Part shown: in pieces, positions 5,697-38,258 of the stretch
Position numbering within the stretch: position 1 is the first letter of the stretch
Layout of the letters: every line of letters starts with the position of its first letter
DNA from: an uncultured Gammaproteobacteria bacterium
GTDB taxonomy: Bacteria; Patescibacteriota; Patescibacteriia; Magasanikbacterales; UBA922
Length of the DNA stretch: 64,000 bases
Assembly (NCBI GenBank): GCA_964447765.1
Contig: CAYUTO010000001.1
Coordinates: 28,110 to 92,109, forward strand
Reading direction: 5' to 3'
The notes under the pieces: model-generated
Database searches by the model: none
The model's input: the letters and a program-made list of their open reading frames with translations, nothing else
Told to the model about the DNA's origin: nothing
Translations under genes and position numbers: made by a program

Positions 5697-5955
5697 CTCG
5701 GTTCCTGTTCGGAACTAGAGCGTGCCTTGGTAGACCCGGCTGCATCTCGCAGTCGGGTTTGTTCGTTTATTGACTAATAAATCTATCATACAAAAACACC
5801 GCTCGTAGGTTCTCCTTTTGCTAAATCCGATATGTATCAGATTTAGTAATGGGGATGCGAGCGGTGTTTTGCCAACTTCCCCAAGGTCTCGCAAGTGCGA
5901 GCTAATTCGGCTGTGACGCCTACATTTATTTCGGGGGATGTTGTGCTTGAAAGGC

Positions 5956-6213
5956 TTAGAAGCCTGCGTCGCTTAGAAACTTCGCAGTCTCTGCGGTATC
6001 GAGAGGTTGGTCGGTGTCCTCCGTGTTGTGTTGGTTGGTTCTCGCGGAAGGTGTAGTCGAGTCTATCTTGAGGATCTTGTTATCCTTGTAGCGGTTCCAG
6101 GACCATTCTTGAGTTAGTACCACGATGAGGATGATGAGGACGAATCCACCTATGATACAAGCAGTCATTGTGATTTCTCTCTCGGATGTGACGGTTAGAG
6201 AGGTGTGCCACAA
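5956..6213 (-). CDS. Hypothetical small single-TM protein, GC-rich cassette B, convergent with cassette A
   Basis: ORF of 85 aa (70 aa from an internal Met) with one hydrophobic helix (ACIIGGFVLIILIVVL) and an acidic tail. A short hairpin AGGCTTagaAGCCT follows the stop. Confidence 0.35.
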   Translation of the reverse strand: MWHTSLTVTSEREITMTACIIGGFVLIILIVVLTQEWSWNRYKDNKILKIDSTTPSARTNQHNTEDTDQPLDTAETAKFLSDAGF

Positions 6214-6302
6214 AAACTAATTATAGACCGATTACTTATCTTGTCAATTAATTTACAGGTAATCTTGAAAGTTTGTGAACAATACTGTACGCTCAGGTAA
6301 GT

Positions 6303-10129: not shown

Positions 10130-10367
10130 ATAGAAAAAAGATTTAAAATTAAAGATTGAAGACTAAATATACCTGCTTTTAAAGCAGTTTTTTAAGTATG
10201 CTGATCTTCAGTCTTCAATCTTTAGTTGTAATTTTTATACTATACAAGTACGCCTTTGTTACGTCAAATGGTTAAATTGAAATAAATTCTTATCCACAAT
10301 TGTATCAATATAAAGCTCATGGTATACTTTGCCCCAAGCTTTTATTATTCATTAATCTGAAGATTTT

Positions 10368-12030: not shown

Positions 12031-12612
12031 ATGCTCAATACCACACTACTTTCAAAAATTAGAAAAGATTTACTTACCTACGCTGAAATCCGACAGCGAG
12101 TGATCAAAGATTCAAATGACGCCTTATTTCAGGCAAAGCGGGCAATTTTTTCTCTTCACCGTGATCAGGTAGGGGAGGCAAAGGAAAAATTACAAGCTTC
12201 ACGAGCGCTTTTAGTAAAAATTAGTAAAGAATATGGTAGGGATGGTCGAGCGCTCGAAGAGGGAGCATACAAAGCTGCACTTGAAGAATTTGTGGAAGCT
12301 GAACTATTTTATCAATTTGTAACTACGTATAAAATTGGAGAAGTAAAAGGAATCAAAATTTCTTCTGAATCCTACGTGGCGGGACTAACTGATGTGCCAG
12401 GTGAGCTCTATCGTTTTGCAATCAAAGCTGCAACTGCACGAGATACAAAAATGGTAACTGCGTGTGCGGAAGCTGCAGAAGAAATTATTGGTGAGCTGAT
12501 TGAATGCAATCTTACGAGTTATCTTCGAAATAAATTTGATCAGGCAAAGACCGCTGTCCACAAATTGGAGCATGTGGTGTATGAGTTATCACTTCGTAAT
12601 CCATCTGCATAA
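12031..12612 (+). CDS. Translin-family protein (putative)
   Basis: 193-aa all-helical protein. SYVAGLTDVPGELYRFAI aligns with the translin signature DYLSGLFDLTGELMRFAI. Confidence 0.55.
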   Translation: MLNTTLLSKIRKDLLTYAEIRQRVIKDSNDALFQAKRAIFSLHRDQVGEAKEKLQASRALLVKISKEYGRDGRALEEGAYKAALEEFVEAELFYQFVTTYKIGEVKGIKISSESYVAGLTDVPGELYRFAIKAATARDTKMVTACAEAAEEIIGELIECNLTSYLRNKFDQAKTAVHKLEHVVYELSLRNPSA

Positions 12613-12619
12613 CTGGTGT

Positions 12620-14035
12620 ATGCTTCAAAAGATTAAAAAATTCATAAAAAAATATGTACCAAAAAAGGTTCTCAACCTTCGTCATTTAATATTTGCATGG
12701 TATGGCGCAGTTCGATACGGGTATCCATCGAATGAGCTTTTGGTAATTGGTATTACGGGGACGAGTGGAAAATCTACGACGGTTTTTTTGCTTCGTAATA
12801 TGCTCGAAGCATTAGGATATCGCGTAGGATCACTTTCTACGATTGATTTCCATATTGCAGGAGAGAATAAATTGAATAATCAGAAGATGACAATGCTCGG
12901 TCGTATGCAGACGCAGAAATATTTGAGGGAGATGGTAAACAAAGGGTGTGAAATTGCTATTGTAGAGACTACTTCAGAGGGGGCAGTACAACATCGTCAT
13001 GAGTTTATCAATTATGACATGATTATTCTCACAAACTTATATCCTGAACATATTGAATCTCATGGTAGTTTTGATAATTATAAAAAAGCAAAATTGTCTA
13101 TTTTTCGTTATATTGCACGATTTGGACGAAACAAGAAGAAGGCTGACGCATTGGGATTTCCCGCCCTTACTCGTCCGGGTACTGAGTATATGTCAAAAAT
13201 TGCGCTCGTTAATGGTGATTCAGTACATGCTCCGGATTTTTTTGCACAAGGCGATTTTGATCACACATATGCATTTGGTCGAGGAGTCCGGATGATTGAT
13301 GGAGTTGATCATCATTTTCTTCTTTCAGATACTCGAAGTGAAGAAAAAGGAATCGCTTTTTCACTTGATGGGCACGAAGTACGGGTACCGCTTTATGGAG
13401 AACATAATGCTGAAAATTGCGCGATTGTATTTAGTGTACTTTCAATTCTTGGTATTGCTTGGGATAAAATTATTCTTGCAGCGCGTGTATGTACGAATGC
13501 GCCTGGTCGAAATGAATTTATTACTCAGGCGGAAAAATATGGATTTAAGGTAATTGTCGACTACGCATTTGAACCCAAAGCTATTGAAGCACTCTATACA
13601 GTAGTATCACATCTTTCAGTACGACGTATTATCCATGTATTTGGTTCGACGGGTGGTGGTCGCGATACGTCTCGTCGATTTAGTGTGGGTGAATATGTAG
13701 GAAAACATGCTGATATCGTGTTTGTCACTGATGAAGACCCTTATGACGATGATCCACTTTTGATTATGCATGATGTATCCAGTGCAGTTGAAAAGAAAGG
13801 TAAAATACCAGGTAAAGATTTGTTTTTGATTGAAAATAGAAAAGAAGCAATTGAACGTGCGATTATGATGGCTGAAGCAGGGGATATTGTACTCGTGACT
13901 GGAAAGGGAAGTGAACAGGGGATGTGTATTGCAGGCGGAAACATAATTCCATGGGATGATCGAGTGGTGGTGCGAGAAGCGCTCACACTTCGTGGTGGTG
14001 AAAAAAAAGAAATACATTCGTTATGGAGCTCATAA
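12620..14035 (+). CDS. murE: UDP-N-acetylmuramoyl-L-alanyl-D-glutamate--2,6-diaminopimelate (or L-Lys) ligase, MurE-like
   Basis: Mur ligase P-loop IGITGTSGKSTT and TNLYPEHIESHG (the MurE TNLxxDHLDxHG motif). The ORF-track start at 12500 overlaps the upstream gene; the ATG at 12620 is the likely start. Confidence 0.8.
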   Translation: MLQKIKKFIKKYVPKKVLNLRHLIFAWYGAVRYGYPSNELLVIGITGTSGKSTTVFLLRNMLEALGYRVGSLSTIDFHIAGENKLNNQKMTMLGRMQTQKYLREMVNKGCEIAIVETTSEGAVQHRHEFINYDMIILTNLYPEHIESHGSFDNYKKAKLSIFRYIARFGRNKKKADALGFPALTRPGTEYMSKIALVNGDSVHAPDFFAQGDFDHTYAFGRGVRMIDGVDHHFLLSDTRSEEKGIAFSLDGHEVRVPLYGEHNAENCAIVFSVLSILGIAWDKIILAARVCTNAPGRNEFITQAEKYGFKVIVDYAFEPKAIEALYTVVSHLSVRRIIHVFGSTGGGRDTSRRFSVGEYVGKHADIVFVTDEDPYDDDPLLIMHDVSSAVEKKGKIPGKDLFLIENRKEAIERAIMMAEAGDIVLVTGKGSEQGMCIAGGNIIPWDDRVVVREALTLRGGEKKEIHSLWSS

Positions 14036-14745
14036 GCGTGGTTGTACCCGTGTATAATCGCCGGGAAGTTTTTTTACATTCACTTACTTCTCTAGTTTCT
14101 CAAACATATCCTGTATTGCAGATTATTGTTGTTGATGATGGGAGTAGTGAGGATATCCAATCGGTATTTGAACATATTCGAGCTACATACGAAGGTGAGG
14201 GGCGACGTTTTTTGTTTATAAGACAAGAAAATAAAGGTGCGCCTGTTGCGAGAAATAGGGGGTTAGCTGAAGCGTCGGGTGAGTTTGTTATATTCTGGGA
14301 CGCAGACGTGATTGGTGAACCTAAAATGCTTCACACAATGTATGAAGCGCTAGAGAAAAATAAAGACGCGTCATTTGCGTATTCCAATTTTTTATTTGGA
14401 AAAAAGTTATTTCGAGGGATGTCATTTTCTTTTGAAGAATTGAAAAAGAAAAATTATATTACTACGACCTCGCTTATTAGAAAAAAAGATAGTATTCAAT
14501 GGGACGAGTCTTTAAAACGTTTTCAGGATTGGGATTTGTGGCTAACGATCGCTGAGTCTGGAAAAAAGGGTATATGGATTGATAAGACATTATTTCAGGT
14601 GCAAGCTACTGGTGGAATAAGTTCGTGGCTACCATCTATTGCCTATGCAAAGCCATTTCGGTGGTTACCCGGTATTCGCTCAAAAGTCGCAGACTATGAG
14701 CGTGCTCGGCAGATTATTTTACATAAACATGTGATTCCAGATTAA
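14023..14745 (+). CDS. Family-2 glycosyltransferase
   Basis: VVVPVYNRREV...VVDDGSSED and a DAD-type motif. Confidence 0.75.
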   Translation: MELISVVVPVYNRREVFLHSLTSLVSQTYPVLQIIVVDDGSSEDIQSVFEHIRATYEGEGRRFLFIRQENKGAPVARNRGLAEASGEFVIFWDADVIGEPKMLHTMYEALEKNKDASFAYSNFLFGKKLFRGMSFSFEELKKKNYITTTSLIRKKDSIQWDESLKRFQDWDLWLTIAESGKKGIWIDKTLFQVQATGGISSWLPSIAYAKPFRWLPGIRSKVADYERARQIILHKHVIPD

Positions 14746-14769
14746 CTACTTGAAAGTTTTTTATAAATA

Positions 14770-15035
14770 TGATATAACGTGGACGAATTTGTTGGACTTT
14801 TTGATTCCGCAATTGGGTAGTGAATCTGTTGCTCCGCCAGTCACTCTACTGATACCGTACAGCGTGTGGTGATTATGCTGGGGTATCGGTGTGCGGTAGT
14901 CTGTATCCACTTTGCCTGGTTTGCGCATTCATCGAGATAAGACGAATTCACTAGGGAACGTGGGGGAGTAATCCCTCATGTTCCCTAGTCCACCACTGTA
15001 TTTAAAAACCGAGTGCATCTCGGTTTTTTGTTTTT
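14770..15035 (+). ncRNA. Candidate structured ncRNA of unknown class (GC-rich, no ORF), ending at a hairpin terminator
   Basis: About 260 nt of GC-rich non-coding sequence with nested stems (e.g. CTAGGGAAC...GTTCCCTAG), ending in AAAACCGAG-tgcat-CTCGGTTTT plus T-run at 15004-15030. Confidence 0.3.
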
Positions 15036-15048
15036 TAGTCTTTGTAAT

Positions 15049-15359
15049 CTTGACATGTGCCATAGTGTATGGTACAACCTTATCGGGTTTATTGTTATTC
15101 TAGATCTATCACCTGTATTGGGTCGATGTCTCCTCCCCGCCGTCTACTTCCATGTCGAGCGGGGATTGCCCCGCAACAATCCGGAACCGTTCCGTGGAGT
15201 GTAGGCGTGACTCGTCCAAAACAAGTGTAATGTCTGTGAATACACAATTAGCCCTGTCTAGGGGAGCGGGAGTAGGTGTTCCTTCTGAACACTGAAACCG
15301 CTTCCCTCGACCTCATCATATCATTTAAAAACGTCCTCAAATTTTGAGGACGTTTTTTT
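15049..15359 (+). ncRNA. Second candidate ncRNA unit: TTGACA promoter, about 260 nt of structured GC-rich RNA, then a perfect terminator
   Basis: TTGACA at 15049-15054 with an extended -10 region. Internal stems include GAGCGGGGATTGCCCCGC. The hairpin ACGTCCTCAAA-tt-TTGAGGACGT plus T7 at 15327-15359 is bidirectional and also serves fmt. Confidence 0.3.
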
Positions 15360-16278
15360 ATACAAATTTTTGTTTATCAAGCGTGAGCCAATATCCAGCA
15401 AGACAAGCATTCACGTCTAATGCTGTTTTTCCTTCGAATTGTATTTTTAAGATTTCAATTGTTCCATCGCCTGTACCTACTGCTATCCAGTCTTCTTCAC
15501 AACTGATCAAACCGGGTTCTAATTTTTGGTATCCTGGCGTTATTTCGAGTAACTTTACTCGCGCACCATTAAGTGTTGTCCAGATGCCAGGCCATGGAGT
15601 AGTGCCTCGGTAGAGGTTGTAAATTTCTTCTGTTGTTTTACTCCAGTCAATTTTTCCATCATCACGGGAGAGTTTTCTACACATTGTTACTTGAGTTTCA
15701 TCTTGTTTTTGTGGTGTAATTTTTTCTGCGATATATTCTGGTAGAGTTTCAAGAAGTAATGCAGAACCTATGTTCGCTAGTTTCTGGTCGAGTACAGGGT
15801 AAGTATCATTTTCGTCGATTGAAGTTTTTTCTTGTGAAAGAACGTCACCTGTATCCATGCCAGTGTCCATAATCATGATCGTCACCCCCGTTTCTGTTTC
15901 GCCGTTAATAAGCGCTGATTGAATAGGGGAGGCACCACGATATTTTGGAAGAAGTGATGTGTGCACATTTACAAATCCATGCTTAGTTTCCTCAAATAAA
16001 TGCGAAGGAATAAGTAATCCATATTGCGCGGTGACTGCAACGTCATACAAATCTTTTTCAAGATGGAAGTTTTTTAGACTTTCTGGTTGTTCAGTTTTGA
16101 TTCCTAATGTATCTGCCAAAACTTTTACTGGTGGGGGAGTAAGTATCTGTTTTCTTCCGACAGGTTTATCTGGCTGAGTTACGACGAGGTCAACTGAAAA
16201 ACGATCATCTTTTGCGAGTGATTCGAGGATGGTTACTCCAAATTCATGAGTTCCGAAGAAGGTGATTGAGATGGGCAT
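15358..16278 (-). CDS. fmt: Methionyl-tRNA formyltransferase
   Basis: N-terminal formyltransferase fold (FFGT..F, HTSLLPKYRG) and a C-terminal Fmt domain. Confidence 0.85.
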   Translation of the reverse strand: MPISITFFGTHEFGVTILESLAKDDRFSVDLVVTQPDKPVGRKQILTPPPVKVLADTLGIKTEQPESLKNFHLEKDLYDVAVTAQYGLLIPSHLFEETKHGFVNVHTSLLPKYRGASPIQSALINGETETGVTIMIMDTGMDTGDVLSQEKTSIDENDTYPVLDQKLANIGSALLLETLPEYIAEKITPQKQDETQVTMCRKLSRDDGKIDWSKTTEEIYNLYRGTTPWPGIWTTLNGARVKLLEITPGYQKLEPGLISCEEDWIAVGTGDGTIEILKIQFEGKTALDVNACLAGYWLTLDKQKFV

Positions 16279-37978: not shown

Positions 37979-38046
37979 ATAAAAAGGGTTAATTAATGTG
38001 TCACACGCGTGTCCCCGGCCGGGTAGACATGGATGTGATCTTGAAC

Positions 38047-38059
38047 CGAACGTTTGTTC
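38047..38059. promoter_or_regulatory. LexA operator, Cheo-box type: CGAACGTTTGTTC
   Basis: Matches the Gram-positive SOS box CGAAC-N4-GTTC; about 70 bp upstream of the lexA start. Confidence 0.7.
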
Positions 38060-38081
38060 TCCTCCTTGAATACAAGTATAC

Positions 38082-38095
38082 CGAACGTACGTTCG
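38082..38095. promoter_or_regulatory. LexA operator, Cheo-box type, perfect palindrome CGAACGTACGTTCG
   Basis: Perfect CGAAC-N4-GTTCG; a second box 35 bp from the first. Confidence 0.75.
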
Positions 38096-38258
38096 GGTGT
38101 AAAGTGTGGTTAGGGGGATGTGTGTGGATAACTAGATTTTGTACGAAGTTTTGTGTCGAATGATTCACTTGATACGAATTTTTCATATAGAGTGAATCAT
38201 TCGCGACTGAACTGCATTGGTTATGCAGACAGTCGCGATAGAGTATGAGCGAGAGGGA

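Follow-up and report, generated by a model that had tools for sequence, protein, structure and literature searches.

The 64-kb window, by which we mean the whole stretch of DNA analysed here, comes from a metagenome-assembled genome (MAG) of Candidatus Magasanikbacteria, in the candidate phyla radiation (CPR)/Patescibacteria. Its closest fmt relatives are all Magasanikbacteria, and two Logan assemblies, made independently, contain the identical sequence. A GT2 glycosyltransferase gene and fmt face each other convergently across a non-coding gap of 612 bp (14746–15357), which carries two candidate genes for structured RNAs, hereafter unit 1 and unit 2. Both units lie on the + strand and share a common design, in which a promoter leads into a rod-like hairpin and then a second hairpin, followed by a G-poor linker and finally an intrinsic terminator. 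The features are listed below with the two flanking genes; folds are minimum free energy (MFE) structures, and consensus helices are those of RNAalifold.

14023–14745, + strand: GT2 glycosyltransferase gene (PF00535).
14750–14778, + strand: unit 1 promoter, with −35 element TTGAAA (14750–14755), a 17-nt spacer and extended −10 element TGaTATAAC (14770–14778).
14785–14949, + strand: unit 1 rod, an imperfect hairpin of ~165 nt found in the MFE structure and as consensus helices 1–7, in which 10 pairs show a compensatory change.
14950–14989, + strand: unit 1 second hairpin, 16 bp, abutting the rod (inverted repeat I1).
14990–15003, + strand: unit 1 linker, G-poor (GUCC... AUUUAAAAA), unpaired in the MFE structure and in the consensus.
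15004–15036, + strand: unit 1 intrinsic terminator, with a 10-bp stem (15004–15028) and a T-run to 15036 (terminator scan; inverted repeat I5).
15050–15078, + strand: unit 2 promoter, with −35 element TTGACA (15050–15055), a 17-nt spacer and extended −10 element TGgTACAAC (15070–15078).
15085–15254, + strand: unit 2 rod, an imperfect hairpin of ~170 nt found in the MFE structure and as helices 1–5 of the four-sequence consensus, in which 16 pairs show a compensatory change.
15256–15311, + strand: unit 2 second hairpin (GUCUAGGGGAGCGGGAG...CCGCUUCCCUCGAC), with helix 6 paired at 100% and three compensatory pairs.
15312–15326, + strand: unit 2 linker, G-poor (CUCAUCAUAUCAUUU), unpaired in the MFE structure and in the consensus.
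15327–15359, + strand: unit 2 intrinsic terminator, whose 15-nt arms (15327–15357) match perfectly and precede a T-run (inverted repeat I2).
15358–16278, − strand: fmt (PF00551/PF02911).

The gap shows no sign of coding capacity. An earlier note on this DNA, made from the letters alone, had seen no plausible open reading frame (ORF) here, and indeed the ORFs that overlap the gap are all of 63 residues or fewer, with no Pfam match at E ≤ 1. The elevated GC content that it described is real but modest, amounting to 0.45 over the gap and peaking at 0.50–0.53 in 200-nt windows, as compared with 0.32–0.44 in the flanks.

The folding of both units is far beyond chance. Unit 1 has an MFE of −100.9 kcal/mol (z −6.55) and unit 2 an MFE of −117 kcal/mol (z −9.67), and the corresponding − strand folds are weaker (z −4.76 and −5.89, respectively). 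The MFE structures include 14 (unit 1) and 10 (unit 2) G·U pairs, which read as A·C mismatches on the opposite strand and therefore point to + strand RNAs and not to DNA cruciforms. Both stems singled out in the earlier note are present. One is an inverted repeat with 18-nt arms, CTAGGGAAC/GTTCCCTAG, at 14950–14989, the position of the second hairpin of unit 1. For the other, GAGCGGGGATTGCCCCGC in unit 2, comparative data favour a different pairing, GGAUUG/CAAUCC, which leaves YCCCGCA as an apical loop.

We collected syntenic fmt/GT2 loci from related genomes (labelled L001, L090 and so forth). Only a few related MAGs of Magasanikbacteria have homologues of the two units, always at the same fmt/GT2 locus. 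Unit 1 is found in L090, L004 and L005 (four sequences including the window) at 75–83% identity, whereas the third codon positions of fmt are 50–61% identical in the same genome pairs, which argues for selective constraint on unit 1. Its consensus, computed with RNAalifold on a MAFFT alignment, comprises 81 pairs with 96.6% of cells paired. Compensatory changes affect 17 of these pairs, as opposed to 5.3±1.9 in shuffled alignments (none of 500 reached as many) and 0–2 when the pairing partners were slid. They are dense in the second hairpin (7 of 16 pairs), where GGGAAC/GUUCCC, for example, is replaced by GGAGGC/GCCUCC in L005, and they also maintain pairing in the terminator stem (helix 9). 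Unit 2 is found in L090, L115 and L001 (again four sequences including the window) and in part in L102. In its consensus of 86 pairs, 93.1% of cells are paired, and 20 pairs show compensatory changes, as opposed to 5.9±2.0 in shuffles (none of 500 as high) and 1–5 with partners slid. In L001, a longer insert takes the place of the upper part of the second hairpin.

Within unit 1, the closing stem of the rod (GAAUUUGUU/GACGAAUUC), the internal-loop strand UUGCUCCGCC.GUCAC and the apical sequence CAGCGUG.GG.GAUU are invariant. The rod of unit 2 carries a 12–14-nt internal loop on its 5′ side (15127–15140) and the invariant apical-loop motif YCCCGCA (15169–15175), and a C-rich bulge midway along it, CUCCUCCCC, becomes CAAAACCC in L115. 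The single-stranded linkers vary freely and are the least conserved part of both RNAs; in unit 1, GUCC is the only conserved piece of the linker. A covariance model (CM) of unit 1 and hidden Markov models (HMMs) of both units detected no further copy of either, whether in the window or across the 344 kb of related loci searched. On this comparative evidence, both units behave as single-copy structured-RNA genes under selection.

Clear paralogy between the two units was considered and rejected: aligned with each other, they show little similarity beyond the promoter and the ATTTAAAAAC/terminator region, and the unit 1 CM scores unit 2 of L090 at only 20.5 bits. Nor do the units appear to be mutual partners, as the intermolecular duplex (−102 kcal/mol) is no better than those of shuffled sequences (−112±7 kcal/mol). 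A K-turn at the basal internal loop of unit 1 was also set aside, given a misfit of register on manual inspection.

Each unit appears to be an independent transcription unit. The unit 1 promoter, which the earlier note had overlooked, is kept in L090, L004 and L005, and the unit 2 promoter is kept in L090, L001 and L115; the TTGACA element of the latter, which had been noted at 15049, starts one base further on. The pattern TTGA-N15-17-TGNTANAAM has three matches in 64 kb (0.53 expected), two of which are the unit promoters. Neither was picked up by a generic promoter scan, owing to the C at the end of their −10 hexamers. The predicted start sites, 7 nt past each −10 element, would coincide with the first base of the closing stem of each rod. 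In more distant Magasanikbacteria loci, matches to the same promoter type were chance occurrences inside genes. The two intrinsic terminators proposed earlier are both present; that of unit 2 is bidirectional, its T-run overlaps the fmt stop codon (15358–15360, − strand), and it is kept in L090 and L115. Both units thus combine a promoter and a terminator of their own with a non-coding body whose structure is kept by covariation, as generally expected of an independent structured small RNA (sRNA) gene. The proposal of two structured RNAs delimited by promoters and terminators is borne out by anatomy, folding and compensatory changes alike, and the comparison with relatives that the earlier note had suggested revealed conservation and covariation. 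No pseudogene signal was found.

These results bear directly on the reading of the block as non-functional DNA, be it a decayed pseudogene, a palindrome resembling a miniature inverted-repeat transposable element (MITE), or a cis-acting 3′ untranslated or terminator region of the GT2 operon or of fmt. Long imperfect intergenic palindromes can be MITEs, and no terminator separates GT2 from unit 1, leaving read-through transcription possible. This reading is nevertheless difficult to reconcile with (i) the single-copy status of the units, which holds for the window as well as for 344 kb of related loci, (ii) the many G·U pairs and a pairing kept by compensatory changes, and (iii) the lack of any ORF fragment with a Pfam match, the dedicated conserved promoters and the absence of a downstream gene on the same strand. 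The start codon (ATG) of a 21-residue ORF within unit 1 is missing from L090. The unit 1 CM and the HMMs of both units find one copy per genome fragment, 64 kb of this genome being covered, and neither tandem or direct repeats, target-site duplications nor TIGR-like arrays were found in the block. As for a riboswitch, leader or T-box, each unit ends in a terminator and is followed by unit 2 or by the convergent fmt. We consider non-functional DNA highly improbable, and take the readings as a pseudogene, a MITE or a cis-regulatory element to be largely refuted.

Imperfect inverted repeats bracket the two-unit block (14756–14786 and 15307–15332; two pairs of 18-nt arms, 78% complementary). They overlap the −10 region of unit 1 and the linker of unit 2, and their AT-rich arms may match by chance.

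The units do not correspond to any RNA family that we searched for. Rfam 15 gave no match at gathering score anywhere in the window, and ARAGORN found no tRNA or transfer-messenger RNA (tmRNA); the 64 kb as a whole thus contain zero tRNA, tmRNA or Rfam family at that score. With the threshold relaxed to E ≤ 10, scans of the block (901 nt scanned) and of each rod alone (216 and 241 nt scanned) returned only noise resembling terminators or miRNAs. The earlier note had found no match to RNase P RNA, tmRNA or signal recognition particle (SRP) RNA, and we concur: Rfam detects none of the three and ARAGORN no tmRNA, the plain ~170-nt rod of each RNA is at odds with RNase P RNA, and the apical sequences CAGCGUG.GG and YCCCGCA lack the SRP helix 8 motif. 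Bacterial Y RNA (YrlA) was likewise rejected, with no Rfam match and no TROVE or RtcB domain in the eight neighbouring proteins scanned. The alternative raised in the earlier note, that the RNAs are lineage-specific, agrees with their confinement to one small Magasanikbacteria clade.

A likeness to 6S RNA, also raised there, fared less well. One or both units could be divergent 6S RNAs, arranged in tandem like 6S-1 and 6S-2, with a rod that mimics an open promoter and sequesters the RNA polymerase holoenzyme. The rods have a suitable length (165–170 nt) and strong promoters of their own, and the 12–14-nt internal loop on the 5′ side of unit 2 lies 43–56 nt from the predicted 5′ end, roughly the position of the central bubble in E. 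coli 6S RNA. That loop, however, faces 4 nt on the 3′ side and its sequence is not conserved, and the largest conserved internal loop of unit 1 measures about 5×6 nt, and unit 1 appears to lack a large central bubble of about 12–15 nt on both strands. In addition, neither rod alone matches a 6S CM at E ≤ 10, 6S RNAs have no counterpart of the extra 3′ hairpin, and close relatives lack both RNAs at this locus or have unrelated RNAs there. We therefore regard a 6S identity as improbable; a 6S-like role is conceivable for unit 2, though unsupported, and does not fit unit 1.

The distribution of conserved positions likewise informs how the RNAs might act. If they were base-pairing sRNAs, C-rich unpaired regions, such as the YCCCGCA loop of unit 2 or the GUCC/GACC linker, would pair with G-rich ribosome-binding sites. 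The apical loop of unit 2 is indeed C-rich and invariant, the genes stand alone with intrinsic terminators, and the G-poor linker begins with (G)UCCNC/GACCYC in every RNA cassette that we found at this locus. Yet the linker is the least conserved part and the CUCCUCCCC bulge is altered in L115, a seed-type sRNA needs no conserved rod of ~170 nt, and the window holds no antisense match of at least 12 nt to a plausible target, although the latter is a weak test. We consider this mode of action unlikely, though conceivable for the C-rich loop of unit 2. By comparison, protein binding via the conserved loops is suggested, with modest confidence, as the most likely mode, because the closing stem and the internal and apical loops are conserved while the linkers vary.

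The site between GT2 and fmt is variable among relatives. We surveyed 17 genomes including the window, with fmt proteins 66–100% identical to that of the window, and refer to the GT2–fmt interval as the slot. Its contents are as follows, with the letters B to F designating further RNAs or units.

Window and L090: unit 1 and unit 2.
L001: a 72-residue membrane ORF and unit 2.
L115: unit E and unit 2.
L099: unit E alone.
L004: unit 1 and a multi-stem type B RNA of ~300 nt.
L005: unit 1 and a short B-like RNA.
L095: type B alone.
L096: type B and unit C.
L100: unit F and type B.
L098: unit D and a tRNA with a 95-nt insert in the anticodon arm.
L091/L092: a 140-residue ORF with a HEPN domain.
L002, L003, L006 and L116: 8–68 bp only.

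The slot RNAs are unrelated in sequence by nhmmer and share a common design. A strong TGn-extended promoter precedes a 5′ domain that is either a rod or multi-branched, after which come a hairpin of 13–18 bp with near-perfect pairing, a G-poor linker and a terminator. The terminator ACCGAU..AUCGGU with its U-run and a similar spacer recurs after different RNA bodies and at an empty site. Units D and F, which have GGGAGCGGG in common in the second hairpin, were considered as homologues of unit 2 and rejected, as nhmmer does not detect them.

Sequence identities across the locus form a mosaic. The window and L090 share 95% of nucleotides in GT2 (third positions 93%) and 80% in the adjacent fmt (third positions 61%). 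Unit 2 is 92% identical to its L090 counterpart and 62% identical to that of L001, whose fmt is the closest of all. These mosaic identities suggest recombination or exchange at the site. The pattern of divergence from L090 over 14023–16278 further suggests that a tract of recent recombination ends within the RNA block or close to it.

The variable contents and the mosaic lend themselves to a reading of the units as accessory cargo of a hypervariable slot, for instance defence, anti-defence or toxin–antitoxin RNAs, which would be exchanged via shared promoter and terminator flanks and would not regulate core physiology. The presence of a HEPN ORF among the slot contents and the use of one terminator to close different RNA bodies and an empty site are in keeping with it. 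By contrast, no integrase or transposase was found, nor were direct repeats or a target-site duplication; blastn against phage and plasmid collections gave no match to the block; pattern scans of viral contigs for both units returned chance matches in coding DNA; and PADLOC reported nothing convincing. We assign this reading a low probability and note that it is compatible with, not exclusive of, our preferred explanation of two protein-binding RNA genes, set out below. A scan of metagenome contigs with a unit 1 pattern gave seven matches, all by chance in high-GC coding DNA.

A more specific proposal, to which we likewise assign a low probability, is that the fmt/GT2 site is a dedicated, recombination-driven slot for RNA cassettes. 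A shared scaffold of promoter, spacer and terminator would host at least eight unrelated, highly structured RNAs of 120–330 nt, or a HEPN protein, swapped between lineages, and the RNAs of the window would be two of its alleles. If this were so, ultra-small CPR bacteria would possess an unrecognized RNA-based accessory repertoire, serving for example defence, anti-defence or host interaction.

Several occupants of the slot deserve a description of their own. Type B RNAs (L095:3335–3640, L004:4925–5228, L096:4100–4395 and L100:1335–1640, all on the − strand) take the second slot position in four relatives. They are ~300 nt long and multi-stemmed, closed by the stem AGGUUG/CAACCU; one hairpin, GGAGGCGGAC...GUCCGCCUCC, is invariant, and another, UUAUCUUCUC..GAGGAAAUAAG, lies on the 3′ side. 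Their consensus has 93 predicted pairs, 13 of them compensatory, and no Rfam match. The type B 3′ module is shared with the tRNA-like unit of L098 (GCA_034680565.1; 4031–4189, − strand). The latter scores 43.1 bits with the Rfam tRNA model, is not called by ARAGORN, and has normal acceptor, D and T arms, but its anticodon loop is replaced by an insertion of ~95 nt. The rod RNA D lies immediately before it, and the two may be co-transcribed, since no terminator intervenes. The HEPN ORF (L091:2665–3087 and L092:3967–4389, both − strand) occurs in a sister lineage with an 82% identical fmt and a slot devoid of RNAs; it matches PF05168 at 22.9 bits (cut-off 22), and its PADLOC match is weak. The 72-residue ORF of L001 (5303–5521, − strand) has two hydrophobic segments and its own terminator and occupies the position of unit 1; by fmt (87% identical), L001 is the closest relative. 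Finally, an octamer resembling a DnaA box, TTATCCAC, lies ~8 nt upstream of the −35 element of slot promoters in L004, L095, L098 and L100 (twice). It is absent from the two promoters in the window, where copies occur at 10290 and 38124, both in intergenic gaps.

Our preferred explanation, which we hold to be probable, is that the block comprises two adjacent, independently transcribed + strand genes for stable structured RNAs of ~250 and ~275 nt that act in trans by protein binding, each representing a new family restricted to this clade. Each transcript would begin at the base of its rod from a near-consensus, sigma-70-type extended −10 promoter, and both RNAs would act in trans as protein-binding RNAs, either scaffolds or decoys. 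Several points weigh against this explanation. The genes are known from sequence alone, and the protein-binding mode derives from the pattern of conservation only. Each family is represented by four related sequences of one clade, so that the covariation counts are supportive and not definitive. Unit 2 is 62% identical between the window and L001 despite an fmt identity of 85.5%, on which basis it would either evolve fast or have been exchanged. The neighbouring genes encode no partner protein and are the same in genomes without the RNAs, and the patchy presence of the RNAs among close relatives argues against a core housekeeping role.

One neighbour is unusual for bacteria. A gene for a Translin-family protein (12031–12612, + strand; PF01997, E 2.8e-20) lies upstream at a distance of three genes, in the same orientation. 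Relatives keep it with or without the RNAs, which does not point to a specific link. Elsewhere in the window, an ORF-poor gap of 606 bp (5697–6302; GC 0.46) folds with z of about −5 on both strands; its layout is unlike that of the two units, it may hold a small − strand ORF, and it has no Rfam match. A short intergenic gap at 37979–38216 (z −4.4 on the + strand) has several hairpins and a GTGGATAA motif.

Non-coding DNA is scarce in the tiny genomes of CPR/Patescibacteria, and the non-coding RNAs (ncRNAs) of these bacteria are almost unstudied; here, 600 bp hold two strongly promoted RNAs with structures under selection. If expressed, these would supply new RNA families for a phylum-level blind spot in Rfam, and the slot would offer a compact natural system in which to follow the gain, replacement and exchange of structured RNA genes. 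Should the RNAs be 6S analogues or defence-related, they would tell us something concrete about how transcription is controlled, or how phages are countered, in organisms for which cultivation on their own is not yet possible.

Comparison with known systems places the two units among structured RNAs while setting them apart from each established family. With 6S RNA (ssrS, RF00013 and related 6S models) they share a rod shape of ~170 nt and an own promoter, as well as a mid-rod internal loop in unit 2. Bacillus has a 6S-1/6S-2 pair, which the two neighbouring units recall. They differ in having no CM match, internal loops that are small or one-sided, an extra 3′ hairpin and linker, and a patchy distribution among close relatives. 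Y RNA/YrlA, the Rsr-associated RNAs, resemble them by a long stem formed from the 5′ and 3′ parts and by conserved internal loops, and a tRNA-like RNA occurs in the slot of a sister genome. The units of the window, on the other hand, have neither an Rfam match nor a tRNA-like module, and the neighbours scanned include no rsr/TROVE or RtcB gene.

The raiA, ROOL and OLE RNAs are large structured ncRNAs from GC-rich intergenic regions, discovered by approaches of the Breaker/Weinberg type (PMC8632094, PMC2864571). The block described here is likewise a GC-enriched, ORF-free segment of an AT-rich genome with extensive covarying structure, whereas its units have no Rfam match, are confined to a handful of MAGs of one clade, and consist of a rod and a hairpin in place of multiple domains. 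MITEs and palindromic repeats such as Correia, RUP and ERIC also form long imperfect intergenic hairpins that are polymorphic for presence among relatives. Unlike them, the units are single copy, with strand-specific G·U pairing, compensatory changes and their own promoter and terminator, and without terminal repeats or target duplication.

Trans-acting sRNAs with C-rich loops are represented in Gram-positive bacteria by the RsaE/RoxS type. The units resemble these in that each gene stands alone, ends in an intrinsic terminator and has unpaired C-rich motifs; they are two to three times larger, are dominated by a conserved rod, and have poorly conserved putative seeds, except for the apical loop of unit 2. 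Overall, unit 1 and unit 2 would be new RNA families of a known kind, that of stand-alone structured bacterial sRNAs. The more unusual aspect is their setting in a CPR lineage with a reduced genome, a cassette-like slot that holds many structured RNAs unrelated to one another.

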